From: a virus
Taxonomy: Duplodnaviria > Caudoviricetes
Reading direction: 5' to 3' (one strand)
DNA: 64,000 nucleotides
IMG/VR virus record: IMGVR_UViG_3300025708_000007
Coordinates: 26,968 to 90,967 of that record
A program made the translations under genes and the position numbers. Shown here one piece after another: positions 6,612 to 35,793 of the stretch (positions are counted from its first letter, which is position 1; each line of letters opens with the position of its first letter). The notes beneath the pieces were generated by a model, which did not search any database, had not been told where the DNA came from, and was given only the letters and a program-made list of their open reading frames with translations.

Positions 6612-6642
6612 TTTGTATTTATGATTTTAAGTGCTATATTTG
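6612..6642 (+). promoter_or_regulatory. Bacteroidota sigma-A type promoter of tRNA operon A
   Basis: TTTG (6612-15), 19 nt, TATATTTG (6635-42). Confidence 0.8.
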
Positions 6643-6675
6643 CACTATCATTTTTTAAGATTTATTGCTATAGTT

Positions 6676-6750
6676 ATGGAGAATTTTGTACATATTCAAC
6701 CCCAGCCACAACAGCATCCACAAGATGGTGAATGGGGAACATGTGCTTAA
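6676..6750 (+). CDS. Leader peptide A, MENFVHIQPQPQQHPQDGEWGTCA (putative attenuator)
   Basis: 10 of 11 consecutive codons are His/Gln/Pro; precedes the Pro/His/Gln tRNA cluster. Confidence 0.8.
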   Translation: MENFVHIQPQPQQHPQDGEWGTCA

Positions 6751-6785
6751 TTTTTCGAAGATGAAGTTTTGAGTTAAACATTGTG

Positions 6786-6816
6786 AACCCCATTCTGAAA
6801 AGAGTGGGGTTTTTTT
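6786..6816 (+). terminator. Attenuator terminator A
   Basis: AACCCCATTC / GAGTGGGGTT plus T run; 5' arm also complementary to GAATGGGG (6730-37). Confidence 0.85.
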
Positions 6817-6829
6817 GTTCTTTGAAATT

Positions 6830-6904
6830 CTGGGTGTTCCGCAGATGGCTATACGGGCGTGCCTTGGAAGCACGTGTTCGCTGGTTCGAATCCAGCTACC
6901 CAGA
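6830..6904 (+). tRNA. tRNA-Pro(TGG)
   Basis: Cloverleaf; CGTGC CT TGG AA GCACG. Confidence 0.9.
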
Positions 6905-11169: not shown

Positions 11170-12093
11170 ATGAAAAAAGATAGCAAACAAAGACTTTTCG
11201 AAGTTATGAGCAGACTTGATAAAACATTCAAGCCAAAATTGAATGAAATTTTTGGGGAAGAACCAGAAGAATTCGTCCCACACGGCACATATACTGTTTC
11301 GAATGCAGGTGGTTATGAAATTATGTTAAACGATGCGGGTGATGCTGCCAAAGTACGTGATGCGTTTGGCTCAGACAACCCAAAAACTTCAGATTGGTTA
11401 GAAATAGAATACACGCCTGATAATGAAACTGGCGAAAGTGAACCAGTTATTGACCCAAATGGTTATAACATTCCTTTAAATCAGGTTATGAGATTACAAG
11501 AAGAAGCAAATGTTAATGAAGAACAAACCAGACCATTATATGATATTGCTCAAGAAATCTATCAGGACTGGAGACCAGTTCATCCATATGCAAAACCATA
11601 TCTTGAAGCAATGTCAACATTGAATTCAATAGATGATAACTATATGATGGATTCAGGTAGAAGTATTGTTTCATATTTTCTTTCAAATGCAAGTCAATGG
11701 AAAGGTGAAACAGCAAAACGCATTAAAATTGAATTGAAAAAAATGTTAGGAATGCGAGAAGGTAGTAGATTAAATGAAACTGGTGAATGGGCAGGTGATG
11801 AAGATGATATAGCATGGATAGATGCTCTCAAATCTGAAGTACAAAAAATCGAATCAGAAACTGATGGAAAATTAAAATTGGTCGAAGTCAGGGGTTTCGA
11901 TAAATATCAAGGACCTTACGCCATTGTTGATATTGAAGGAAGAAAATACAAAATCTGGACAGTTGGTGGTGAATATGATAGCGATTTACTTTGGATTGAA
12001 AATTATCCCATTGACAATACTTCAAGTGAGGATATGAATGCTGGTTTTATGGGTACAACAAAAACAATTATTAATATGTTGAAACAGAACTGA
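11170..12093 (+). CDS. Hypothetical multi-segment protein with RLFEVM leader
   Basis: KQRLFEVMSRLDKTFKPKLNE; internal VNEE and LNE junctions. Confidence 0.7.
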   Translation: MKKDSKQRLFEVMSRLDKTFKPKLNEIFGEEPEEFVPHGTYTVSNAGGYEIMLNDAGDAAKVRDAFGSDNPKTSDWLEIEYTPDNETGESEPVIDPNGYNIPLNQVMRLQEEANVNEEQTRPLYDIAQEIYQDWRPVHPYAKPYLEAMSTLNSIDDNYMMDSGRSIVSYFLSNASQWKGETAKRIKIELKKMLGMREGSRLNETGEWAGDEDDIAWIDALKSEVQKIESETDGKLKLVEVRGFDKYQGPYAIVDIEGRKYKIWTVGGEYDSDLLWIENYPIDNTSSEDMNAGFMGTTKTIINMLKQN

Positions 12094-12137
12094 TTGCAAA
12101 ACTTGAAAAATTATTTTTAAAAATAATTGAAAAAAAG

Positions 12138-12168
12138 TTTGTTTATTTTGAAACATTTTTTATCTTTG
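12138..12168 (+). promoter_or_regulatory. Bacteroidota-type promoter of tRNA operon B
   Basis: TTTG, 19 nt, TATCTTTG. Confidence 0.8.
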
Positions 12169-12233
12169 TATCGTATAATTGCAAAACAAATAGTATTTAA
12201 ATAAAAAGTATTAACAATTAAAATTCAAAACGA

Positions 12234-12329
12234 ATGAAAAGAATGCTCGACATATCAGTAATGGCAGTAGCCTTGAACGCAGTCCTATTATGGGATGCAG
12301 TAGAGGATGCGCTATGCAAAGTCGGGTAA
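12234..12329 (+). CDS. Leader peptide B, MKRMLDISVMAVALNAVLLWDAVEDALCKVG (putative attenuator)
   Basis: 20 of 31 residues are L/V/A/D/E/W, matching the downstream tRNAs. Confidence 0.8.
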   Translation: MKRMLDISVMAVALNAVLLWDAVEDALCKVG

Positions 12330-12361
12330 TTTGTATTCATATACAACCTCCTTTCTAAATG

Positions 12362-12398
12362 AAAAGACCCGACTTCCCTACAAGCCGGGTTTTTTTTT
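12362..12398 (+). terminator. Attenuator terminator B
   Basis: ACCCGACTT / AAGCCGGGT plus T run; 5' arm perfectly complementary to AAGTCGGGT (12319-27). Confidence 0.85.
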
Positions 12399-12408
12399 GA
12401 AAGGAGAA

Positions 12409-12426
12409 GTTCTTTGACATGCTGGA
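12409..12426 (+). promoter_or_regulatory. boxA-like antitermination element
   Basis: GTTCTTTGACATGCTGGA, identical at 34045-34062. Confidence 0.6.
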
Positions 12427-12431
12427 AATTT

Positions 12432-12507
12432 GGTGCTGGGGTCTGCTTGGCGTGGACGCATGACTGTCACTCATGATATCAGGAGAGTTCGAATCTCTTC
12501 AGCACCG
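12432..12507 (+). tRNA. tRNA-Asp(GTC)
   Basis: CATGA CT GTC AC TCATG; G73. Confidence 0.9.
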
Positions 12508-12511
12508 CATA

Positions 12512-12629
12512 CGGTCTTATAAATAATTACCCTGAGTAAATCGGGTAGCCGATGTACACGGTTTGGAACGATTCGGAAAGCAAGCATGCATTGCTCGATG
12601 AGGGGGGGTTCGAATCCCTGTAAGACCGC
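12512..12629 (+). ncRNA. tRNA-like RNA: acceptor stem and T arm with a non-tRNA interior
   Basis: CGGTCTTA / TAAGACCG; GGG TTCGAAT CCC. Confidence 0.55.
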
Positions 12630-12634
12630 AATTT

Positions 12635-12706
12635 CGAGGTCGTAGTTTAATGGTTAGAATGCCACCCTGTCACGATGGAGAAGGGGTTCGAATCCCACGG
12701 CTTCGG
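12635..12706 (+). tRNA. tRNA-Asp(GTC), weak T stem
   Basis: CCACC CT GTC AC GATGG. Confidence 0.7.
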
Positions 12707-12759
12707 CAAATTTTACTGTTAAAGCAGTAAAAAGTGCCATATATGATACTAAAGATAGT

Positions 12760-12853
12760 GATGACCGATGTAAAAAACTGCACGAGAAACAGACACGAGT
12801 GGGTTAAGAGTTGTTTTAATACCCGCAACGGTTGCCAGTACCCAAGGTCATCC
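12760..12853 (+). ncRNA. Unassigned 94-nt structured RNA, copy 2
   Basis: 87 of 94 nt identical to 7790-7883. Confidence 0.75.
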
Positions 12854-12857
12854 AGAT

Positions 12858-12931
12858 GCTGCGTTCGGCAAGATGGTTAAGCCGTAAGACCTTCAATCTT
12901 ACATGCATGGGTTCGAGTCCCATACGCAGTA
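12858..12931 (+). tRNA. tRNA-Glu(TTC) with non-canonical C33
   Basis: TAAGA CC TTC AA TCTTA. Confidence 0.7.
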
Positions 12932-13046
12932 CAAGTGAAATCGAAATGTCGTAAGATAGTAGTAGTTAAGTCTACCGATTTTTGTGGTTTTGAGCACGAG
13001 ACGCTCATGTAATAGGGCATACACTCCCTTTCCACCACTTACTTAT

Positions 13047-13118
13047 GCTCGATTCTTCTAACGGTAAGGAAAACTGACTCTCAATCAGTTAATGGCAGTT
13101 CAATTCTGCCATCGAGTA
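13047..13118 (+). tRNA. tRNA-Glu(CTC)
   Basis: ACTGA CT CTC AA TCAGT. Confidence 0.85.
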
Positions 13119-13123
13119 CAATT

Positions 13124-13198
13124 GGTCGGCTCGTCTAATTGGTTAGGACATCACCCTTTCACGGTGAAGATTTACGGGTTCGAGTCCCATACGCAATA
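13124..13198 (+). pseudogene. Chimeric tRNA-Glu(TTC) with unpaired acceptor stem
   Basis: 5' GGTCGGC cannot pair with 3' ACGCAAT; 3' end copies that of the 12858 tRNA. Confidence 0.65.
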
Positions 13199-13199
13199 C

Positions 13200-13292
13200 A
13201 ATGTTGAGGTGGTATTACACAGAGAAAAGAAAGTCTCTGCAGAGAACCTAAAAAATAATGGCTGCATGCGGGTGAAAATCCCGTCAACGTTA
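13200..13292 (+). ncRNA. tRNA-like RNA with TGAAAAT T-loop variant
   Basis: AATGTTG / CAACGTT stem; GCGGG TGAAAAT CCCGT. Confidence 0.5.
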
Positions 13293-13295
13293 AAT

Positions 13296-13367
13296 GTCCG
13301 GTTCGTCTAACGGTTAGGACACCACCCTTTCACGGTGAAAATACGAGTTCGATTCACGTACCGGATA
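13296..13367 (+). tRNA. tRNA-Glu(TTC)
   Basis: CACC CT TTC AC GGTG. Confidence 0.85.
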
Positions 13368-13407
13368 CTATAAATCGGCACTAAATTCAATTTGCTGCCG
13401 AAAATTT

Positions 13408-13481
13408 GCTTCCTTAACTCAGTCCGGGAGAGTGTCTGTTTTACATACAGAAAGTCGCAGGTTCAAACCCTGCAGGAAGCA
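13408..13481 (+). tRNA. tRNA-Val(TAC)
   Basis: TCTGT TT TAC AT ACAGA. Confidence 0.9.
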
Positions 13482-13485
13482 CAAA

Positions 13486-13670
13486 ATGCCAAAGACTTGG
13501 GATAACATTCTCTTAAAGGGAAACCGGAGTAGTGATAGCTTAAACGAAGGGGTTTCATAGTCAATGGTAACAGCGAAAAGATAGCCACTCAGTAACTGTT
13601 GGGTGAGTAATGTAAGGGTTAAGCATGCCGGAGCGAAAGCCGGAAGATAAGGTTCGAATCCCCCACCCCA
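13486..13670 (+). ncRNA. Unassigned ~185-nt structured RNA ending in a T-loop motif
   Basis: CACTCA/TGGGTG and CCGG-GC-GAAA-GC-CGG hairpins; GGTTCGAATCC near the 3' end. Confidence 0.45.
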
Positions 13671-13674
13671 AAAT

Positions 13675-13752
13675 GCACTCTTAGCTCAGTTGGTTCAGAG
13701 CGTGTGCCTTACAAGCACAGGGTCGGGGGTTCGAATCCCTCAGAGTGCACCA
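13675..13752 (+). tRNA. tRNA-Val(TAC), CCA encoded
   Basis: TGTGC CT TAC AA GCACA. Confidence 0.92.
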
Positions 13753-13828
13753 AAATGAAAAATATGCTCAAAAACAAAAAAATATTATACTTTTGAGCAT
13801 ATGTTAGTATTTATTGTAAATTATTATC

Positions 13829-14326
13829 ATGGAAAGCTGTATTTTTTGTGGACATAGCAATATCGTTAGGGCAGGTAAAAATAAAAGGGGTAGTCAAAGA
13901 TATATTTGCAGAAAATGTGGTAAATATTTTAACGAAAATACTGACCCAAACATTGGAGTTATATTAAATGGTAAAAAATATTGTTCTAAGTGTAAAACAT
14001 TTAAGTTAGTATCGGAATTTCAATCAACAAATGGTAGATTACGTTATTGTTGTAAAAAATGTGCATCAAAATCAAGTAAAGCAAGATTCAGAAATCATAA
14101 TATAACTGAATTTGAATTCGTTAATTTAATCGATAGTCAAAAAAATATGTGTCCAATATGTGGGGATAAATTTAAATCATATAAACATGCAATTATTGAC
14201 CATAATCATAAAAATGGTAAAAATAGAGAATTATTATGTTCTAAATGTAATACGTTGTTAGGTATGTGTAATGATAATATTGATATTCTCAATAGTGCAA
14301 TCAATTATTTATTAAAACACAATTAA
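13829..14326 (+). CDS. Endonuclease VII-type HNH endonuclease with N-terminal Zn ribbons
   Basis: CPICG...IIDHNH.NGKNRELLCSKCNTLLG. Confidence 0.85.
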   Translation: MESCIFCGHSNIVRAGKNKRGSQRYICRKCGKYFNENTDPNIGVILNGKKYCSKCKTFKLVSEFQSTNGRLRYCCKKCASKSSKARFRNHNITEFEFVNLIDSQKNMCPICGDKFKSYKHAIIDHNHKNGKNRELLCSKCNTLLGMCNDNIDILNSAINYLLKHN

Positions 14327-14383
14327 TTTATCGGTATATTTGCCTATAAAGATATATTATCGGCTCTACAACCGATAAAATTT

Positions 14384-14466
14384 CCTCAAGTGTTGTAATT
14401 GGGTAGCCAAGCCAGACTAAGAATCTGGTGTCGAAAGATGTGTGGGTTCGAGTCCCACCTTGAGGA
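14384..14466 (+). tRNA. tRNA-Leu(AAG), rare A34 anticodon
   Basis: CCAGA CT AAG AA TCTGG; long variable arm. Confidence 0.85.
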
Positions 14467-14472
14467 CAAAAT

Positions 14473-14559
14473 GCGGATGTGATGGAATGGTAGACATGAT
14501 ACGCTTAGAACGTATTGCGAAGTAATAGTAGCGTGGGGGTTCGAGTCCCTTCATCCGTA
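14473..14559 (+). tRNA. tRNA-Leu(TAG)
   Basis: ATACG CT TAG AA CGTAT; long variable arm. Confidence 0.9.
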
Positions 14560-14565
14560 CTAAAT

Positions 14566-14640
14566 GCTGGTGTAGCCGAATGGTAAAGAGGCAACTGTTT
14601 TAGAAACAGAAATTTGTGGGTTCGACTCCCACCACCAGTA
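14566..14640 (+). tRNA. tRNA-Leu(TAG) with short variable loop
   Basis: CTGT TT TAG AA ACAG; no long arm. Confidence 0.75.
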
Positions 14641-14644
14641 CAAA

Positions 14645-14868
14645 GATGTTAATAAATAGAGTTGAGGGGCAGTAAGAGTGGTAATGAAAAGTCCTGAGAA
14701 CCACCACCAGTTTGTTAACATTGAGAGAGGCGCATGACAGATTCGAGCAGGGATGACTGCGTAGCCTGTACCAAGTGTTCTTAAAAGTGAAGGAGTAATA
14801 CCTTCAGGCGCATTATTTCGAACTGCAAAGGGGTAATGGTCGAATTACTAATAAGGTACTACTCTCAT
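14645..14868 (+). ncRNA. Unassigned structured intergenic RNA(s)
   Basis: ATGTTAATAAA/TTTGTTAACAT domain then TGAGAG/CTCTCA domain; non-coding, inside the tRNA array. Confidence 0.4.
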
Positions 14869-14870
14869 TT

Positions 14871-14944
14871 GGGGTCGTAGCTCAATTGGCAAGAGCACCT
14901 GCCTTGCACGCAGGGGGTTGAGGGTTCGAGTCCCTTCGACTCCA
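14871..14944 (+). tRNA. tRNA-Ala(TGC)
   Basis: CCTGC CT TGC AC GCAGG; G3:U70. Confidence 0.92.
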
Positions 14945-14947
14945 CAA

Positions 14948-15027
14948 AATGAAATACAGAAAGTCTGGGTCAAACCCCAGAGAGACGTAAAATGTCGAGA
15001 AGTGTGACGGCACGTCTGTATTTCATT
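14948..15027 (+). ncRNA. 80-nt cloverleaf-topology RNA with 13-bp closing stem
   Basis: AATGAAATACAGA / TCTGTATTTCATT enclosing three short hairpins. Confidence 0.55.
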
Positions 15028-15031
15028 CTTT

Positions 15032-15103
15032 GGGGCAGTAACTCAACGGCTGAGTGCTTGACTTGCAATCAAGTGTATGCGGGTTCGAATCCCGTCTGCT
15101 CCA
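15032..15103 (+). tRNA. tRNA-Ala(TGC)
   Basis: CTTGA CT TGC AA TCAAG; G3:U70. Confidence 0.9.
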
Positions 15104-15183
15104 CAAAATTGGTTGGAATTATTCCGTCAATTCTGTAATAAGAGCGTCAACAGCTACGGCATTAACTCTTTCCAATTTTAACA

Positions 15184-15266
15184 TGACCCCTTGAATTATG
15201 CAAAATAGGCACAGCAGACAGGCTTAAACCCTGATTCTTTGTGGGTTCGAGTCCCACAGGGGTTAC
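15184..15266 (+). tRNA. Atypical tRNA-Leu(TAA): possible 8-bp acceptor, enlarged D region, short variable loop
   Basis: CAGG CT TAA AC CCTG; TGACCCCT / AGGGGTTA. Confidence 0.6.
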
Positions 15267-15274
15267 AAATTTAC

Positions 15275-15348
15275 GGCACAGTAGTCCAACTGGCAGAGAT
15301 ACCCGCCTCAAAAGCGGTTCAGTGTGGGTTCGAATCCCACCTGTGCTA
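15275..15348 (+). tRNA. tRNA-Leu(CAA) with short variable loop
   Basis: CCGC CT CAA AA GCGG. Confidence 0.8.
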
Positions 15349-15399
15349 CAAGCACGCACACAATGAATCGAAAATAAATTTTCGAAGTATTTATGATAT

Positions 15400-16068
15400 A
15401 TGATACCACTATATACACAAACGGAATTTGATTTAGCAAAAGATAATGATAAATTACCTTGTAAATGTGTTGAATGTGGTAAAATTTTTTATAAACTGAA
15501 AAGGGTGATAAAAAGAACATTCATTGGCTACGATAGAAACATTGGTGATTATTGTTCAAGAAGATGTGCTCGATTATCAAAAAAATCGAGTGCAGATGTT
15601 GTTTGCAGTAATTGTGGAAAATCTTTCAATAAAGTAAAAAGTCAAATTAAAAGAAGCAAAAATCATTTTTGTTCTAAATCATGTTCTGCAATTTATAATA
15701 ACGTCCATAAAAAACATGGAACACGAAAATCCAAACTTGAAAAATGGTTGGAATATAATCTCACCAAAATATACCCAGACTTAAATTTTCATTTTAATTG
15801 CAAAGACACCATTAATTCAGAACTTGATATTTATATTCCATCATTAAAATTAGCTTTTGAATTAAATGGAATATACCATTACGAACCAATATATGGTGAG
15901 GATAAACTTCAACAAATTCAAAGCAATGATAATCGTAAATTTCAAGCCTGTTTGGAAAAAGGTATCGAACTATGTATTATTGATACTTCACAACAAAAAT
16001 ATTTTAAAGAACAAACATCACAAAAATATTTAAAAATCGTACAAGAAATAATAAACACACATCGGTAG
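15400..16068 (+). CDS. Zn-finger repeat plus PD-(D/E)XK (Vsr/DUF559-like) endonuclease
   Basis: CxxC...YCSxxC repeats; ELDIYIPSLKLAFELNG..HY; stop codon inside tRNA-Trp. Confidence 0.8.
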   Translation: MIPLYTQTEFDLAKDNDKLPCKCVECGKIFYKLKRVIKRTFIGYDRNIGDYCSRRCARLSKKSSADVVCSNCGKSFNKVKSQIKRSKNHFCSKSCSAIYNNVHKKHGTRKSKLEKWLEYNLTKIYPDLNFHFNCKDTINSELDIYIPSLKLAFELNGIYHYEPIYGEDKLQQIQSNDNRKFQACLEKGIELCIIDTSQQKYFKEQTSQKYLKIVQEIINTHR

Positions 16069-16130
16069 TTCAGTGGTAGAACGTTGGTCTCCAAAACCAA
16101 ATGTCGGGTGTTCGAATCGCCCCCGGTGTG
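16059..16130 (+). tRNA. tRNA-Trp(CCA)
   Basis: TTGGT CT CCA AA ACCAA. Confidence 0.9.
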
Positions 16131-16136
16131 CTAAAT

Positions 16137-16211
16137 GTGTCTGTCGTCTAATGGCTAAGATATTGGCTTCCAAACCCAAGGATGAAGGTTCGAGTCCTTC
16201 CAGACATGCCA
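16137..16211 (+). tRNA. tRNA-Trp(CCA), CCA end encoded
   Basis: TTGGC TT CCA AA CCCAA; G73. Confidence 0.8.
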
Positions 16212-16244
16212 AAACACGGAATAAAACCGTGCCAATTTTCGTAA

Positions 16245-16369
16245 TGAAACGGTGAAAAAATCGCAGGTGCGAGGCACAATCACCGTTGGAGTCCAAATCC
16301 GACACAGATACCACTGAGGGCAGAAGTGTACCCAAGAGCAATATCAGTTAGTGGTTCGTCACCGTTTCA
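16245..16369 (+). ncRNA. Unassigned ~125-nt RNA
   Basis: Perfect 11-bp TGAAACGGTGA / TCACCGTTTCA closure; alternative internal TCACCGTT. Confidence 0.45.
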
Positions 16370-16686
16370 GAAAGTTTCAGTATTTTGTAACATTTTCAAA
16401 TTTATTTCGTATAATCATTAAAAAGAAAGGAGCATGCCTTCAAAATAACATTTAAATATCGCAAGACTTGGTGGTGGAGATTTGTACATTACAATTATTT
16501 TCACAAGCAATTGTTCAGAAAATATTATGTGCAAAGAAAAAGAGCACTTACCGAAAAGGAAATCAAGAAGTATAAACGATATCAGAAAATCGATGACTTG
16601 ATAACTTTAAGAAAAGTAGATTGGTTGCGAGAATTTATATGGCGATTAGAACCATAATTTTGTATTTATTGATAAAAGTGAAAATT

Positions 16687-17118
16687 ATGAAAAAAATATT
16701 GTTTCTTTTAACTCTGGTGATTATTGCAATGTTTTTGATGTCACAGACACAAACAACAAGGCAGAAAGAAGTTTATTATCAGGATAAATTTGCTGAAATC
16801 ATCAAAGGCAGCACAAGCGTTACATTATGGGATAAAACTGAAGTCGATATTCTTACCGACACATTTGCAATCGAAGTTGATTTTTCTGAGAAATGGGCAG
16901 AAAGCATAGGTCAGTCATTATATTATGCTGAAATGACAAATCGTAAAGCAGGTGTTTTACTTGTTGTAAATAGTAATCTCGATGAAAGATTTATCAGAAG
17001 ACTAATGACCGTTGCTATGAGAAAAGACATTACTGTTTGGTTAATGGACTATACCACAGAAAAATGGTGCAAAGTTGATAGATTTGTTGAATATTCTTAT
17101 TCATACGAATTTAAATAA
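16687..17118 (+). CDS. Signal-peptide protein with PD-(D/E)XK-like motif
   Basis: DILTDTFAIEVDFSEKWAESIGQSLYY. Confidence 0.6.
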   Translation: MKKILFLLTLVIIAMFLMSQTQTTRQKEVYYQDKFAEIIKGSTSVTLWDKTEVDILTDTFAIEVDFSEKWAESIGQSLYYAEMTNRKAGVLLVVNSNLDERFIRRLMTVAMRKDITVWLMDYTTEKWCKVDRFVEYSYSYEFK

Positions 17119-17159
17119 CACTTGTTTGTTTCAGAAAAAAGAATTAAATTTGTCACCCT

Positions 17160-17894
17160 ATGTATATCATTGCAAAGAAAAAGGACTATTATGATGGCGT
17201 TGCTGGAAGTACTGGCATTGACAAAACCATTGTTTATGACCGTCAAATAGTTGAACTTGAAAGGGACGAAATACCCACTGAGTTCAGGAAAAGGGGTTAT
17301 TATACTAAAGAAAACAACCCATTATATCTTTTAAGCAATGCCAGCATAAAAAAAGAATATCAGGAAACATATCCAAAAGGTGCATATTTCATTATTGGAT
17401 TTTGTGGTAAACTTTATCTGGGGTGGAAATTCTATAGTTTCAAAAAGAATTGTGAGTATAATGATTATGAAAACATTAATACTTTAATAACATACGATTT
17501 GGACTATATTAAAGAAATCCTTGAAGAAAAAACTTGGTATGGTGTCACTGCTGACCAAATCGAAAGTGTATTAAATTTTAATGCAACGGATTGGTTCAGA
17601 AAATTTAATGCTCCTTGTTTTGTTTACGATTATGATTATGGCAGAACACACCTTGATGAAAAATATTGGAGAAGTGATAATGTTTCAAAATTTATAATCA
17701 ATCCTCTTTTAAAAGACTACGAATTTTATAAAGTATTTGATTCATTTCAAGCATTTCAGGAAGTTTCGATGTTCATAGGCGGTGTACTTGGCAAGGAAGA
17801 AAAAGATATTGTAGAAGTTGCGGATAAATATAAAATTGCGCAACATGGTTTTGATAAATGGAGTTTCAGAAAAATGCCAAAAAATGAAAAATAG
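17160..17894 (+). CDS. Hypothetical phage protein
   Basis: 244-aa ORF, KDYYD...HGFDKWSFRK. Confidence 0.7.
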   Translation: MYIIAKKKDYYDGVAGSTGIDKTIVYDRQIVELERDEIPTEFRKRGYYTKENNPLYLLSNASIKKEYQETYPKGAYFIIGFCGKLYLGWKFYSFKKNCEYNDYENINTLITYDLDYIKEILEEKTWYGVTADQIESVLNFNATDWFRKFNAPCFVYDYDYGRTHLDEKYWRSDNVSKFIINPLLKDYEFYKVFDSFQAFQEVSMFIGGVLGKEEKDIVEVADKYKIAQHGFDKWSFRKMPKNEK

Positions 17895-18084
17895 TGTTAC
17901 GGATGAAAATGATAATCCAATTGGATTGATGGAACAAATAAGAAAGCAATCTGAAGAGAACAAAAAAATTGAAATTAATCTCGAAGAAAAATTAAGTGAG
18001 CCTTGGAAAAAACCCAATATTGACACAATATATGGTGGAATTGAATTTATTGAAAAATTTAATGAAGAGTTAAATGAAACATAA
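17884..18084 (+). CDS. Hypothetical protein
   Basis: Short ORF overlapping the previous stop. Confidence 0.5.
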   Translation: MKNSVTDENDNPIGLMEQIRKQSEENKKIEINLEEKLSEPWKKPNIDTIYGGIEFIEKFNEELNET

Positions 18085-18154
18085 TTGAAGACTTTATTCA
18101 TGAAGTCAGATACAGTATTTCTTTAATGGATGGTACGCATCCTTGACGTTCTTT

Positions 18155-18527
18155 GGGGCAGTTTGGTTTTGACAGCATGCTTGAATGGTATGTAAGCAAG
18201 TCGTAGTTTGAGCAACACTACGTAAAAACAGGTTCAAAACAATAAATGCAGAGGATATAATGTCCATTCCTACTTCTCTAACGAGAGGTCGCTTATTTGT
18301 AGAGAGTGCTGAACTCGCAATGGTAGCGTAAGGAAGCAGCAAACGCAGCAAAAACCTTCCAAATAAACCCATCTCGATGGAACTTGTTATTTTAACAGAG
18401 AGATAAGGAAGTAAAATAAAACAGTGGATAAAAAATAAATGTTTTGCTGATTTAGAAAAATCAGATAAACTTGTAGAAAACGTATTGGGCACATGACTGC
18501 ACACGGGTTCGAATCCCGTCTGCTCCA
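18155..18527 (+). ncRNA. ssrA: tmRNA
   Basis: GGGGCAG / CTGCTCC-A acceptor with G3:U70, stemless D region, T arm, resume context TAAAT-GCA and a tag ORF ending AMVA. Confidence 0.9.
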
Positions 18528-18552
18528 CTAAAACATTTAAAACATTGAAATT

Positions 18553-18990
18553 ATGAGTGACCATAGTAAACAAATAGAATTACTGGAAAAACTTCTCAAT
18601 TCTGAGGAAGGTAAAGCCTCTATGAAAAAATTTTTCAACGATTTGGCAGATAAGAAAAAAATTGCTGAAGGTCGTTATAGGAAATTTGAAAAATGGCTTG
18701 AAACTCACGATTTAGATGAAATAATGCAACGTCTTGAAAAAGAACATTGTGTTGAATGGCGTAATAAGTGTTATAATAATGGTTATGAACCATATCCAAA
18801 TAACAAACTTGCTTTTTTAATTGATTATGTCGTTCATAATTATTATTCAATTAGCGTACCGCAAATTGAAAGCGAACATTTCGCAAATCAATCTTGGTTT
18901 TTCAAAGGATACTATATTAATATGACTTGGGGTCAGGGAGTGTTCACGCAAATATTTGACAGCAAATTCAATCAAATTATTGCGCTATGA
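18553..18990 (+). CDS. Hypothetical protein
   Basis: 145-aa ORF. Confidence 0.65.
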   Translation: MSDHSKQIELLEKLLNSEEGKASMKKFFNDLADKKKIAEGRYRKFEKWLETHDLDEIMQRLEKEHCVEWRNKCYNNGYEPYPNNKLAFLIDYVVHNYYSISVPQIESEHFANQSWFFKGYYINMTWGQGVFTQIFDSKFNQIIAL

Positions 18991-19301
18991 AAATATATCA
19001 CAACAAATTGGTGAGAGATAAAATACTGAAGACACTAAAAAAATCTGGTGTTGGTCATAAATATCATATTGCAAAAGACGATACTGAATTTCTTGAAAAA
19101 CTTAATGAAAAACTTCGGGAAGAAATACAAGAATTTAATGAAAAACCAAGCATTGAGGAATTTGCGGATATACTACAAGTACTTGAAACCATTGCAAGAT
19201 TTCATAGTTTTGATTTGAATGAAATTAAAGAAGCAAAAGCCAATAAATTCTATAATAAAGGTGGCTTTAATAATAGAATTGTTTTGGAAGAAACGAATTA
19301 A
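18987..19301 (+). CDS. MazG-like / PRA-PH nucleoside triphosphate pyrophosphohydrolase
   Basis: HNKLVRDKI...EEFADILQV...KGGF. Confidence 0.8.
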   Translation: MKIYHNKLVRDKILKTLKKSGVGHKYHIAKDDTEFLEKLNEKLREEIQEFNEKPSIEEFADILQVLETIARFHSFDLNEIKEAKANKFYNKGGFNNRIVLEETN

Positions 19302-19328
19302 CTGAAACTTTTTGCGGTAAAAATAAAC

Positions 19329-19418
19329 GGGGGTGTGATGAAATTGGTAGCACATACGGGACTTAAAATCCCGTGGGCAGTAATGCCCGTGTCGGTTCGA
19401 GTCCGACCACCCCTACCA
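19329..19418 (+). tRNA. tRNA-Leu(TAA), CCA encoded
   Basis: CGGGA CT TAA AA TCCCG; long variable arm. Confidence 0.92.
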
Positions 19419-19423
19419 AAACA

Positions 19424-19526
19424 TTTGGTAGCATTGCTACAAATAAACAAAGGCGGGTGTGGTGTCCCAACATCGGCAATTTAGATGCAATTGTCGGTAG
19501 CATGAGTTCGAGTCTCACCACCAAAT
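19424..19526 (+). ncRNA. tRNA-like RNA with expanded 5' domain and 8-bp anticodon-like stem
   Basis: TTTGGT / ACCAAA; CGGCAATT / AATTGTCG; TGAG TTCGAGT CTCA. Confidence 0.5.
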
Positions 19527-19545
19527 GTTTTTAAATTAAAATGAT

Positions 19546-19728
19546 ATGTTGTCATACGGAAAAAATAAGAAAATGCGTGAAAACTATCCTGACAATCATC
19601 CCAAGAAAGGATATGTAAACTGGTGGGAAGTTGAACTTGGAGATATTGATAAAGGTCGTGAACGTCAAGAAGCAAAACGTAACATAAAAAAAGAATTAAA
19701 TGATGAAACTATTGGCAGGAATGATTGA
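19546..19728 (+). CDS. Hypothetical protein
   Basis: 60-aa ORF, GYVNWWE. Confidence 0.5.
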   Translation: MLSYGKNKKMRENYPDNHPKKGYVNWWEVELGDIDKGRERQEAKRNIKKELNDETIGRND

Positions 19729-19814
19729 AATGTTCAGAATGTTGTTTATTAACAGTTATGATGACCCATACACTGAATACCTTTCGGAACAACCGGGTAT
19801 TTATGTTCACATAA

Positions 19815-20111
19815 GTGATGTTTATGATAATGTTTAGAGAAATGCGTAAAGAAGTTAAGTTTTTATCAAAAGAAATTAAATTTGCAATTCGTAAAGAAAT
19901 TCGCAAAGAATGCCGTCAGGAAGCAATACGAATACTTGAACTTGCAGAGGAAAAAGACCGTGAGGATTTTCTTAAATATCATAAAGAAGACCAAGGAAAC
20001 ATTTGCTGTATGGTGTTGGATTTTGCAAAGAAAAAATTAGTTGAAAAGGGTGTTATGGAACAAAAACCAAACGATTGTTTTGAAGACCCGACAATACATT
20101 TGGAAAAATGA
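19815..20111 (+). CDS. Hypothetical protein
   Basis: 98-aa ORF. Confidence 0.5.
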   Translation: MMFMIMFREMRKEVKFLSKEIKFAIRKEIRKECRQEAIRILELAEEKDREDFLKYHKEDQGNICCMVLDFAKKKLVEKGVMEQKPNDCFEDPTIHLEK

Positions 20112-20229
20112 AAATCAAAAAGAATTTCAATCCCAATGATTGTGGTTGTGGTAAATCTTTAAAAACTAAGGATTCTCGAAGAAAAAATACCACACCAAAA
20201 CGAATAATAAAGAAAAAAAGTAACCTCAA

Positions 20230-20775
20230 GTGATGGATAATAAATCATATTCATATTTGTTGGGGCAGTATTTAGGTGACGGCTGTGTTTCTGAAACAAA
20301 AAGAACGTATAGATTACGTATTTTTAATGACGTTAAATATAATCATTTAAATGACTATATATTTCAAACAATACAAAAAATATTTCCAAACAATAAGGTG
20401 AATACATGTTTTTATCAAAATCATGTTATTACTTATGTTTATTCAAATGAAATTCCCAAATTATTTCCACAACACAATCTGGGATTAAAAAAAAATAGAA
20501 AAATTCAATTATATGACTGGCAAATAAAAATATTGGACTATAAATATTTATTTGCAGGATTGTTGCATTCAGATGGTTGTATTTATTTTGACAGAGGATA
20601 TAAAATGTGTGTATTTACTAACACTTCATTAGACATATTGGACATTTTTAAAGATTGTTGCGATAAATTAAATATTGAATACACCATCAATAAAAATAGG
20701 ATACAAATAAGAAAAAGAAAATCTAATGATTGGATTGAAGAAAATGTTGGTGATAAAAATATAATTAAAATATAA
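20230..20775 (+). CDS. LAGLIDADG homing endonuclease
   Basis: Two motifs, YLLGQYLGDG and LFAGLLHSDG. Confidence 0.85.
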   Translation: MMDNKSYSYLLGQYLGDGCVSETKRTYRLRIFNDVKYNHLNDYIFQTIQKIFPNNKVNTCFYQNHVITYVYSNEIPKLFPQHNLGLKKNRKIQLYDWQIKILDYKYLFAGLLHSDGCIYFDRGYKMCVFTNTSLDILDIFKDCCDKLNIEYTINKNRIQIRKRKSNDWIEENVGDKNIIKI

Positions 20776-20776
20776 T

Positions 20777-20850
20777 GCCCAGATGACGGAATTGGCATAC
20801 GTATTAGATTCAAAACCTAAGTTTTGTGGGTTCGACTCCCACTCTGGGCA
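20777..20850 (+). tRNA. tRNA-Leu(CAA) with short variable loop
   Basis: TTAGA TT CAA AA CCTAA. Confidence 0.75.
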
Positions 20851-20870
20851 CTAAAAAAAATGTATTGGTT

Positions 20871-21374
20871 ATGGCAAAAATACTCAAAGTTCCAATGAAA
20901 GGACAATGGTATGATTTTGATTGCGGTGTTGCTATAACATATTCAATATTAAGATATCTCAAAATAAAGGTTAGTTATGAAGATGTTTTAAAAACATCAA
21001 AAGTGTGCCCGGTAAATGGCATAAAGCCAAACAAGCTTATCAATTTGTTTAAAAAATTTGGATTGAATGCTGTTTGCGAAAACGATAAAAACATTAGATT
21101 CTTAATCAAACAAATAAATGCCAATAATCCAGTAATTGTATTAATTCAATGTAGAAAAGAATATAAAAAGTCTTGGGCGAGTACGTGGGCACACGGACAC
21201 TACGTTGTGGTAATTGGTTACGATAAAAACAGAGTATTTATATTTGACCCGTCAATGGGTGGTAGCATAAAAACATTTACACATAAACAATTTTATGGTC
21301 GTTGGCATGATTATTCAAAAAATAATACTTATATTCGAACCGTAATTTATATTGATGATGAAAATGAGAAATGA
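20871..21374 (+). CDS. C39-family cysteine peptidase
   Basis: DCGVA; GHYVVVIGYD; FDP. Confidence 0.8.
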   Translation: MAKILKVPMKGQWYDFDCGVAITYSILRYLKIKVSYEDVLKTSKVCPVNGIKPNKLINLFKKFGLNAVCENDKNIRFLIKQINANNPVIVLIQCRKEYKKSWASTWAHGHYVVVIGYDKNRVFIFDPSMGGSIKTFTHKQFYGRWHDYSKNNTYIRTVIYIDDENEK

Positions 21375-21409
21375 AAGGGCATCAGTCTTTTAAGTTAATT
21401 ACTTAAAAG

Positions 21410-21733
21410 ATGAAAGCAAAAAAAATCTCAGACGAAACCACTAATCGTGGTGAATTCAATCGTGCATACAAGTTTTATCTTGAGCACAGTGGCAAAATTA
21501 GCTGTAGTTATTGTCGTTACAATCGTGGCGAAAATTCAAATCAAAAATGGTATGGTGGTTATCTTTATGATGACATGGAAATTTGTCGTGGTAAAAGAAA
21601 GGGAACAAATACCAGATTTCCAAACTGGAAACTTGTTTCAAAAAATAAAAAACAGTGGATGGAAAAGCCAATCAAAATGAAAAAAAGATATTTTGGTGGG
21701 TATACCAGAATTTATATCGACATTGTTTGGTAA
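21410..21733 (+). CDS. Hypothetical protein
   Basis: 107-aa basic ORF with CSYC. Confidence 0.6.
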   Translation: MKAKKISDETTNRGEFNRAYKFYLEHSGKISCSYCRYNRGENSNQKWYGGYLYDDMEICRGKRKGTNTRFPNWKLVSKNKKQWMEKPIKMKKRYFGGYTRIYIDIVW

Positions 21734-21745
21734 TGTCGATTATTT

Positions 21746-21818
21746 GGCGGGATAGCTCAGTTGGTAGAGCGATGGAGTCATAACCCATAGGTCGTGAGTT
21801 CGAATCTCACTCCCGCTA
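21746..21818 (+). tRNA. tRNA-Met(CAT) (elongator Met or Ile2)
   Basis: ATGG..GT CAT AA..CCAT; GGCGGGA / TCCCGCT. Confidence 0.85.
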
Positions 21819-21823
21819 CAAAT

Positions 21824-21851
21824 AAAAAAACCCATCGAATTCGATGGGTTT
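21824..21851. terminator. Bidirectional terminator
   Basis: AAACCCATCG / CGATGGGTTT between convergent units. Confidence 0.65.
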
Positions 21852-26454: not shown

Positions 26455-27024
26455 TTATCGTATTCTTTCTTTATTGTCACCCATGTAGGTGTATTTAAAT
26501 GCCGGATTCTTTAATAATGCACTTCCTGCAGCAATTGCAGCAATTCTTTCTTCCAACATTGGAATTATAGGGGGTGGCGTACCAGAAGGTATTGAAATAT
26601 ATTGTGCAATTTCTTCGTAAGGCACAACTTCCCAATCCAACGTATATACAGTATGAAATGTTGCATCTTCCTGTGGAACAATTGGGAAATATCTACCGTT
26701 AGGTCCTTCCACCATTATTTTCACACCCTCAATTGGCTTGTATTCAGTTGTACCGCCAACAAATTGGAAATTAGGGTCTTTACGCAACATTGATTCTTTG
26801 TATGTTTCTGCCCATCTGAACTTATAGGGTTTGTGTTTAAAAATCCTACCAAAATATGGATTTGGGTTTGTTCTTGAACCCAATGTCTTTGGTGCTCGTG
26901 CTGGATATGTATAATATACGTATCCAAAAGAATATTTTTGTGGGTCTCTACCCATAAATTCGAGAAAATCCTCTACGGTTGTAATTTCACGACCTTCACT
27001 AAGTTCGTATATAAAATTTCCCAT
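26455..27024 (-). CDS. Hypothetical protein
   Basis: 189-aa ORF. Confidence 0.65.
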   Translation of the reverse strand: MGNFIYELSEGREITTVEDFLEFMGRDPQKYSFGYVYYTYPARAPKTLGSRTNPNPYFGRIFKHKPYKFRWAETYKESMLRKDPNFQFVGGTTEYKPIEGVKIMVEGPNGRYFPIVPQEDATFHTVYTLDWEVVPYEEIAQYISIPSGTPPPIIPMLEERIAAIAAGSALLKNPAFKYTYMGDNKERIR

Positions 27025-27928: not shown

Positions 27929-27959
27929 TTTGTTTTTATCGTATTTATCCTTACATTTG
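27929..27959 (+). promoter_or_regulatory. Bacteroidota-type promoter of tRNA operon C
   Basis: TTTG, 19 nt, TACATTTG. Confidence 0.8.
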
Positions 27960-27987
27960 TAACCTCAAACTTTGTAAAAACATTTTT

Positions 27988-28077
27988 ATGATGACTATTT
28001 TTGGAACATATTATTACGGTAAAAAATCTTATAAGAAACAACTTATAGGAATCGGGAATACTATGTCCAAAAATTAA
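27988..28077 (+). CDS. Leader peptide C, MMTIFGTYYYGKKSYKKQLIGIGNTMSKN (putative attenuator)
   Basis: YYYGKKSYKK run precedes a cluster containing only Tyr and Lys tRNAs. Confidence 0.82.
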   Translation: MMTIFGTYYYGKKSYKKQLIGIGNTMSKN

Positions 28078-28105
28078 ATGGTTTTGATTTTAATCTGACA
28101 TGAAC

Positions 28106-28134
28106 AACCCGATTCCGAAAGAGTCGGGTTTTTT
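28106..28134 (+). terminator. Attenuator terminator C
   Basis: AACCCGATTC / GAGTCGGGTT plus T run; CCCGATTCC also pairs perfectly with GGAATCGGG (28048-56). Confidence 0.85.
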
Positions 28135-28146
28135 ATTTTGTATATT

Positions 28147-28228
28147 CGGCAGAATGGTAAGTGGGTGAAATCACAGGTCTGTAAAACCTTCGCCATTGGC
28201 TATGGGGGTTCGAATCCCTCTCTGCCGA
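28147..28228 (+). tRNA. tRNA-Tyr(GTA) with apparent C1:G72
   Basis: AGGT CT GTA AA ACCT; long variable arm. Confidence 0.8.
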
Positions 28229-33579: not shown

Positions 33580-33610
33580 TTTGGTATTTATGAAACATTT
33601 TATACCTTTG
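33580..33610 (+). promoter_or_regulatory. Bacteroidota-type promoter of tRNA operon D
   Basis: TTTG, 19 nt, TACCTTTG. Confidence 0.8.
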
Positions 33611-33679
33611 CATCGTATTTAGGTAAAAATGAGTTTATGAAAAAACCTTTTTATTATTAAAAACAAAAAAAATAAAACA

Positions 33680-33814
33680 ATGAAACGAATAGCGTACATA
33701 TTAGTATCGAGTCTAACGACAACCAGTCGTATTGGAGAAGGTACATTTTGCTCAGATTTCGGCAGAAATAATATTGCGGATACGGGTTCAGGTTTTATTG
33801 ACTTAAAAAGATAA
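33680..33814 (+). CDS. Leader peptide D, MKRIAYILVSSLTTTSRIGEGTFCSDFGRNNIADTGSGFIDLKR (putative attenuator)
   Basis: 30 of 44 residues are S/T/G/I/R/F/N/C, matching the downstream tRNAs. Confidence 0.8.
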   Translation: MKRIAYILVSSLTTTSRIGEGTFCSDFGRNNIADTGSGFIDLKR

Positions 33815-33847
33815 GTAGGTAGTAAAATAAAACTGAAATAAAATCAG

Positions 33848-33879
33848 AACCCGGAATCCAAAAAAGTTCCGGGTTTTTT
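33848..33879 (+). terminator. Attenuator terminator D
   Basis: AACCCGGAAT / GTTCCGGGTT plus T run; alternative pairing with 33778-33799. Confidence 0.85.
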
Positions 33880-33904
33880 GTTTTTAATGCGTTCTTTACA
33901 TATT

Positions 33905-33976
33905 GCCAAGTTAGTTTAACGGATAGAATCTCTGTGTGGTATTCAGGGGATACAAGTTCGATTCTTGTACTTGGCT
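33905..33976 (+). tRNA. tRNA-Thr(GGT)
   Basis: GCCAAGT / ACTTGGC; loop GT GGT AT. Confidence 0.75.
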
Positions 33977-35585: not shown

Positions 35586-35747
35586 GGGGAGATAGGGTTA
35601 TTTGGTAGACTCGTCAGTGTGAAAACTGAACTACGAAAGTAGGTAGTCCTCATGAGGGTTGTTGTTAACGTGCGCACAATTCTAACAACGCTTCCACTGA
35701 ATGTGAGTAATGACGAGAGGTTGGTGGTTCAAATCCATCTCTCCCCA
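35586..35747 (+). ncRNA. 162-nt tRNA-like RNA with a 94-nt insert at the anticodon
   Basis: GGGGAGA / TCTCCCC-A; D loop TGGTAG; CTCGTCA / TGACGAG; T arm. Confidence 0.65.
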
Positions 35748-35793
35748 CCGCAACGGTTCGCACTACACGGTGATTAACGAGGAAGTGCAAAAT

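Follow-up and report, generated by a model that had tools for sequence, protein, structure and literature searches.

A predicted leader-peptide attenuator in front of a phage tRNA array

The 64,000-nucleotide stretch analysed here (the window; positions 26,968 to 90,967 of the IMG/VR record IMGVR_UViG_3300025708_000007; Duplodnaviria, Caudoviricetes) carries on its + strand a 31-codon open reading frame (ORF) that is followed by mutually exclusive RNA pairings, a terminator-like hairpin and an array of tRNA genes. The window is a portion of a 91-kb contig, is AT-rich (G+C ~33%) and contains 50 tRNA genes and a transfer-messenger RNA (tmRNA) gene, all on the + strand according to ARAGORN and Rfam. 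Judging from the sequence, we consider it likely that the ORF and the RNA elements around it form a ribosome-mediated (leader-peptide) transcription attenuator controlling this phage tRNA operon. The elements in question, in order along the strand, are as follows.

12138..12168, + strand: putative Bacteroidota-type promoter (TTTG, 19-nt spacer, TAnnTTTG; -7 box at 12161-12168), found by a pattern scan
12234..12329, + strand: leader ORF (ATG, 31 sense codons, TAA)
12244..12251, + strand: segment 1, codons 4-6, containing CTC GAC; pairs with 12321-12328 of segment 2
12319..12328, + strand: segment 2, 5' strand of the predicted antiterminator, overlapping the final three codons and the stop codon
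12348..12355, + strand: pyrimidine box, 5' strand of an outer helix, conserved, past the stop codon
12365..12375, + strand: segment 3, 5' arm of the predicted terminator; pairs with segment 2 or segment 4
12382..12398, + strand: segment 4, 3' arm of the predicted terminator (arm 12382-12392, then nine T)
12399..12406, + strand: 3' strand of the outer helix, pairing with 12348-12355 around the terminator
12409..12427, + strand: boxA-like box, agreeing with 10 of the 11 positions of GYTCTTTAANA
12432..16211, + strand: tRNA array, the presumed target of regulation (two Asp, three Glu, two Val, four Leu, two Ala and two Trp genes, with two inserted ORFs)

A preliminary description of this locus, made from its letters alone, had proposed an attenuator whose leader samples the amino acids of the downstream tRNAs. 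That the tRNAs at 12432-16211 are limited to Asp, Glu, Val, Leu, Ala and Trp is borne out by both ARAGORN and Rfam, and our recount arrives at the same 20 codons for these six amino acids among the 31 of the leader, where 10.5 would be expected from the long ORFs of the contig (binomial P = 4.6e-4). Because a tRNA with a CAT anticodon at 21746 closes the same + strand block, we added Met to the leader set, upon which 22 of the 30 non-initiator codons belong to it (10.8 expected, P = 3.4e-5); from its sequence this tRNA could be either Met or Ile2.

The RNA of the leader is predicted to adopt three alternative helices, each of which depends on how much of it is available. An RNA that stops before segment 3 contains the helix between segments 1 and 2 (1:2) in its minimum free energy (MFE) structure (-31.3 kcal/mol), the same helix is found in the MFE structures of the homologous leaders L102 and L038, and it is part of the RNAalifold consensus. 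When the RNA stops before segment 4, segment 2 pairs with segment 3 (2:3; -17.2 kcal/mol, z -4.5), and this includes the perfect 9-bp pairing at the leader end noticed previously, which lies between 12319-12327 and 12367-12375. When segment 2 is removed, the terminator helix between segments 3 and 4 (3:4) folds as an 11-pair stem followed by nine T (-14.3 kcal/mol, z -3.9). Given that the stop codon overlaps segment 2, a ribosome at termination would mask that segment. In the fold of the read-through RNA (-26.6 kcal/mol), the outer helix encloses the terminator, and it is also found in homologues whose sequences differ, where a per-sequence duplex test gives -9.9 kcal/mol with the helix's own partner vs -6.9 kcal/mol with a foreign one (mean z -1.65).

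To compare this leader with others we used homologues found via the flanking gene and the boxA-like box, which yielded 20 distinct leaders from other phage contigs (alignment A1). The ATG is kept in all 20, the open frame spans 27-32 codons, and the stop codon is found 0-15 nt past segment 2. Within the ORF, 40 of 40 gap runs are multiples of three (3, 6 or 9 nt), compared with 19 of 88, of all lengths, in the non-coding part. Of the 418 core residues, 89% are Asp, Glu, Val, Leu, Ala, Trp or Met (~36% expected), and half of the core residues outside this set come from a single conserved Ile codon (ATA, codon 7). The arrays behind these leaders keep the order Asp-Glu-Val-Leu-Ala-Trp wherever enough sequence is present to judge. 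The invariant ATG, the conserved position of the stop and the in-frame indels point to translation of the ORF, and thereby speak against an element that works without it, namely a leader RNA which binds tRNAs or a protein, as in T-boxes or protein-mediated antitermination, with the open frame incidental. Although sensing of tRNA by RNA is generally known from T-boxes, nothing in the present data suggests it here: a T-box match was found neither at the Rfam gathering threshold nor at E up to 10, no other Rfam family matched up to that E value, and on 12090-12640 nothing but tRNA rises above noise. None of the Rfam leader families is similar: Thr_leader reaches 16 bits, its gathering score being 55. 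We therefore regard an element of this kind as very unlikely.

The pairings are conserved as well. Across the 20 homologues, 2:3 is paired in 92.7% of the cells of the alignment, whereas controls in which the segments were slid reach at most 48%, and compensatory changes occur at three of its pairs (14 cells), a number that 0 of 500 shuffles equalled. Compensatory changes are also seen at five pairs of 3:4. In L123, for example, G changes to A in segments 2 and 4 together with C to T in segment 3. Pairing in 1:2 extends to 98.7% of cells, and none of its 14 changes, all one-sided, disrupts it. The terminator of the window genome does contain a mismatch, as had been described, and it is a single A·C at 12372/12385; the idea derived from it, that the terminator is weaker than the antiterminator, does not describe a conserved feature, since the mismatch is peculiar to this genome and 19 of 20 homologues pair there.

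Two elements of Bacteroidota type flank the switch, the putative promoter upstream and the boxA-like box downstream. The promoter pattern has six matches in the window, four of which sit 45-95 nt 5' of its four leader ORFs (see below), and the motif is also present in the homologues. The boxA-like box conforms at 10 of 11 positions to the published boxA consensus GYTCTTTAANA (doi 10.1101/091223) and, as an identical 19-mer, is found ~20-50 nt 5' of the 23S rRNA in six of six Bacteroidota rRNA loci checked. The same 19-mer stands before many tRNA arrays in viral contigs; more than 119 viral contigs have it, in several different settings. It probably loads the Nus complex of the host. The TTTG-N19-TAnnTTTG promoters and the 19-nt box in common with Bacteroidota rRNA operons point to a Bacteroidota host. 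In another setting of the box, L007 (2697-2745) and ~60 viral contigs like it, a common phage family, carry the Rfam motif DUF2693-FD RNA (76 bits) immediately 5' of the box, and a conserved hairpin-rich RNA comes after.

The window contains three further cassettes of promoter, leader and terminator, so that its four units can be lettered A to D in order, the one described above being B. Cassette 6612-6830 (A) precedes a Pro-His-Gln array and has a leader rich in Gln, Pro and His; cassette 27929-28147 (C) precedes a Tyr-Lys array, with a leader rich in Tyr and Lys; and cassette 33580-33905 (D) precedes a Thr-Cys-Asn-Phe-Ser-Arg-Gly-Ile array, with a leader rich in Thr, Ser, Arg, Gly, Phe, Ile, Asn and Cys. 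The four arrays divide the 20 amino acids among themselves with no overlap. When introns are allowed, ARAGORN places in array D (35586-35749) a Leu(gag) tRNA interrupted by 85 nt of intron; if it is real, Leu is not exclusive to B. Leaders A and C, when untranslated, are also predicted to fold a 1:2-type helix across their regulatory codons.

The same architecture occurs in unrelated phage contigs with different amino-acid sets. In L030, all 13 amino acids of the array are present in the leader, and Ala, Asp, Gly, Leu and Pro are missing from leader and array alike; in L058, each of the 17 amino acids in the array also occurs in the leader, and Gly is missing from both. The L089 leader ends in a hydrophobic tail; before the tail, almost every residue is one of the six amino acids for which the array has tRNAs, as are 27 of the 43 residues of the complete peptide (12 expected, P = 2e-6). 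When nine non-homologous units were taken together, the true pairing of leaders with arrays ranked first of 362,880 permutations, by the sum of z-scores and by Jaccard overlap (P = 2.8e-6). The 3' part of each leader is complementary to its own terminator arm over 4-10 nt, mostly 6-10, vs an off-diagonal mean of 4.6. Two anecdotal cases come from L039, whose B-type unit has neither Val tRNAs in the array nor Val codons in the leader core, and whose A-type unit (Gln/Pro/His) has gained two Arg tRNAs in the array and an Arg codon in the leader core. B-type and L030-type units are also present on L127 and L162, contigs binned as Anaerolinea and Shapirobacteria metagenome-assembled genomes; these are probably misbinned phage contigs.

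The preliminary description had gone further and claimed a correspondence of leader codons with the anticodons of the array, and this part was not supported beyond chance. In the window, the anticodons of the array can read 16 of the 19 set codons, compared with 14.3 expected from synonymous usage (P = 0.21), and across relatives the leader codons match the anticodons of their own array no better than those of others (P = 0.19 with wobble, 0.09 with Watson-Crick pairing). The Leu codons of the leader are CTC, TTG, CTA, TTA and CTA, and had been taken to sample all four Leu isoacceptor classes. That five Leu codons cover four classes is within chance (P = 0.14 with wobble), and obtaining exactly these four codons from genome usage, at P = 0.017, is weak evidence. 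As for the matching tRNAs, those with anticodons aag, tag and caa were confirmed at 14384-15349, but the taa tRNA was located at 19329, beyond the array to which it had been assigned, if still in the same + strand block. Conservation of CTC, GAC and the last GTC is accounted for by their being parts of segments 1 and 2, which fixes them through RNA pairing. Where residues are identical, their codons are identical too in 67-93% of cases for the leader and 54-73% for the flanking gene, on a sample of 15 codons that is too small to be of use. The leaders prefer codons that are rare in phage genes (CTC, CTA, GTC, GAG and ATA). The match between leader and array is at the amino-acid level only. What survives of the proposed attenuator is therefore its amino-acid version, with the frame, the helices and the amino-acid match in place and the codon-level part removed.

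We favour the attenuator because the frame is conserved, 2:3 and 3:4 covary in part, 1:2 is conserved, and the amino acids of leader and array match in unrelated units. In the mechanism we envisage, transcription would begin near 12175 at the Bacteroidota-type promoter, and the nascent RNA would carry the 31-codon ORF and then segments 1, 2, 3 and 4, the last followed by U9. If the ORF is not translated, 1:2 would fold, leaving segment 3 to form 3:4, and RNA polymerase would terminate. If a ribosome translates the ORF without delay and reaches the stop codon, it would mask segment 2, so that 3:4 would again form and transcription would end ahead of the tRNAs. A ribosome stalled at any codon up to about codon 25, for want of charged tRNA for Asp, Glu, Val, Leu, Ala, Trp or Met, would instead open 1:2 and leave segment 2 free; segment 2 would then pair with segment 3, no terminator would form, and the polymerase would continue across the boxA-like box into the Asp-Glu-Val-Leu-Ala-Trp array. 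The outcome would be a supply of phage tRNA that is driven by demand and follows OR logic across some seven amino acids.

Several observations weigh against this reading. A ribosome stalled at codons 12-25 leaves segment 1 uncovered, and 1:2 might re-form behind it. Double-sided compensatory changes in 1:2 were not found among the 20 sequences, so that this helix is conserved but its covariation unproven. The leaders conserve an Ile ATA codon, yet the B block has no called tRNA for Ile, unless the one with the CAT anticodon (21746) is Ile2. In L012, L066 and L123, an insert of 25-30 nt between the T-run and the boxA-like box (A1 columns 186-227) resembles the -7 promoter region of the phage, and may be a promoter that bypasses the switch. 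The codon/anticodon match also fails to emerge when all four leaders of the window are pooled (P = 0.10). Finally, the core of the leader is hydrophobic, such that B taken alone could resemble a membrane helix, and in L002-L004, which represent one phage, the array is down to Asp and Trp tRNAs while the leader, rich in V/A/L/E, is unchanged. The persistence of this leader despite the lost tRNAs indicates that the match of leader and array is not tightly maintained. The interior of the L002-L004 array holds GIY-YIG-like, receiver-domain and membrane-protein genes.

The hydrophobic core raises the question of whether the ORF might simply encode a small conserved phage protein, with the hairpin an ordinary terminator or insulator and the tRNA match a by-product of a membrane helix rich in Leu, Val and Ala. 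The charged flanks of the core in the B family and the peptide order kept in 20 homologues would fit such a protein. However, it would leave unexplained why the last codons pair and covary with the terminator arm and why there is a 1:2 helix, and the leaders rich in Gln/Pro/His, Tyr/Lys and Thr/Ser/Arg/Gly are not membrane-like, yet match their own arrays. In addition, tRNA-Asp (12432) begins only 33 nt past the T-run, which leaves no space for a second promoter, and a plain terminator at this distance from a promoterless array would silence it. We thus see little to recommend this explanation and give it a very low probability.

The loss of most array tRNAs in L002-L004 behind a surviving leader bears on a different alternative, in which the attenuator is real but senses the general traffic of ribosomes, such as translation capacity or the timing of infection, with the composition of the leader being mostly inherited history. 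The failure of codon choice to follow the anticodons of the array agrees with this alternative, as does the fixing of several set codons by RNA pairing. Nevertheless, the nine unrelated units contain the amino acids of their own arrays and omit the absent ones, as in L030 and L058, and history alone fails to explain such a match across leaders that are not homologous. A sensor of general traffic is thus improbable in our estimation, if somewhat less so than a small protein or an RNA that acts without translation. A leader-peptide attenuator that responds to the amino acids of its array remains the reading we prefer.

The transcription unit probably extends beyond the array, as follows.

16212..21851, + strand: probable remainder of the transcription unit, with ORFs, tmRNA at 18155-18530, Leu(taa) at 19329, Leu(caa) at 20777, the CAT-anticodon tRNA at 21746 and a hairpin at 21828-21851

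Between 12399 and 21828 no + strand terminator was detected, and co-transcription of 16212-21851 with the array is probable. The tmRNA (105.7 bits in Rfam) keeps its position in the + strand block of array B in relatives. Protein genes within the tRNA block are located at 13829-14326, 20230-20775 and 20826-21374, and comprise one endonuclease VII-like, one LAGLIDADG-like and one C39-type peptidase-like gene; the endonuclease VII-like gene is one of the two ORFs inserted in 12432-16211. The spacers between the called tRNAs of the array are long (110-230 nt). The 126-nt gap at 12509-12634 looks tRNA-like to the eye, with acceptor-like and T-arm-like ends, although neither Rfam nor ARAGORN with introns allowed made a call there. 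Elsewhere in the window, at 46324-46399, is a tRNA with the anticodon CTA (an amber suppressor), labelled Pyl by ARAGORN.

The closest relatives of this phage are uncultured viral contigs reaching 357 kb in length, and among GenBank phages no homologue of the region was found other than tRNA matches. The sequence is present in runs from wastewater, anaerobic digesters and activated sludge, and 56-65% of the words of 11170-14400 were found in six activated-sludge metatranscriptome runs.

Leader-peptide attenuators that respond to more than one amino acid are well established in enterobacteria, as in ilvGMEDA (Ile/Leu/Val) and thr (Thr/Ile), alongside those of trp, his, leu and pheA. The arrangement described here resembles them in its short ORF close to the promoter with many regulatory codons, its predicted alternative pairings (1:2, 2:3 and 3:4), the intrinsic terminator ahead of the first gene under control, a stop codon placed to mask segment 2, and a single leader for several amino acids. 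However, the enterobacterial attenuators regulate biosynthetic enzymes, whereas the genes regulated here would be tRNAs, the very molecule that is sensed; moreover, about seven amino acids are involved, and the system belongs to a phage, with a promoter of Bacteroidota type ahead of it and a boxA-like box behind. The pheST operon of E. coli, which encodes phenylalanyl-tRNA synthetase, is likewise under a leader-peptide attenuator, and provides a case in which such control bears on the machinery of translation and not on biosynthesis, although the gene controlled encodes a protein and a single amino acid is sensed. T-box riboswitches also convert a shortage of charged tRNA into antitermination 5' of translation-related genes, but they bind uncharged tRNA directly and without translation, in contrast to the present leaders, which lack T-box features and conserve a frame. 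Antitermination by boxA and Nus in rRNA operons has its counterpart in 12409-12427, the same box as that 5' of Bacteroidota 23S rRNA; here it stands behind the proposed leader-peptide attenuator and before a phage tRNA array, with binding of NusB/NusE putative.

The mechanism is thus a known one, and what is new is that it would act on tRNA arrays, in a phage, through a leader of such breadth. In the literature, which we covered incompletely, no description came up of tRNA genes or phage tRNA arrays being controlled by leader peptides or attenuation. To our knowledge, the regulation of phage tRNA genes is largely unknown, and the tRNAs are usually treated as constitutive cargo.

A more speculative thought is that the leaders act as sensors of an attack on the tRNA pool, whether by anticodon nucleases of the host or by the phage's own shut-off, and that stalling on the matching codons switches on only the array that replaces what was lost. 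We regard this as unlikely. If it were true, the leaders would constitute an inducible counter-defence that is resolved by amino-acid group, and the four non-overlapping arrays would amount to four independent alarm circuits.

Leader-peptide attenuation aimed at tRNA genes would tie tRNA supply directly to the speed of decoding in a closed feedback loop. With 20 distinct homologues of the B leader and several unrelated leader types, the design is widespread in Bacteroidota phages, and it suggests a coupling of transcription to translation in the hosts concerned. The composition of a leader would provide a readout, at the level of sequence, of which tRNAs the phage groups together for regulation. 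Since each leader would state the shortage that its array answers, the question of why big phages carry tRNAs would become experimentally approachable. The leaders would also be compact natural sensors of decoding capacity with multiple inputs, and as such could be reused as reporters.
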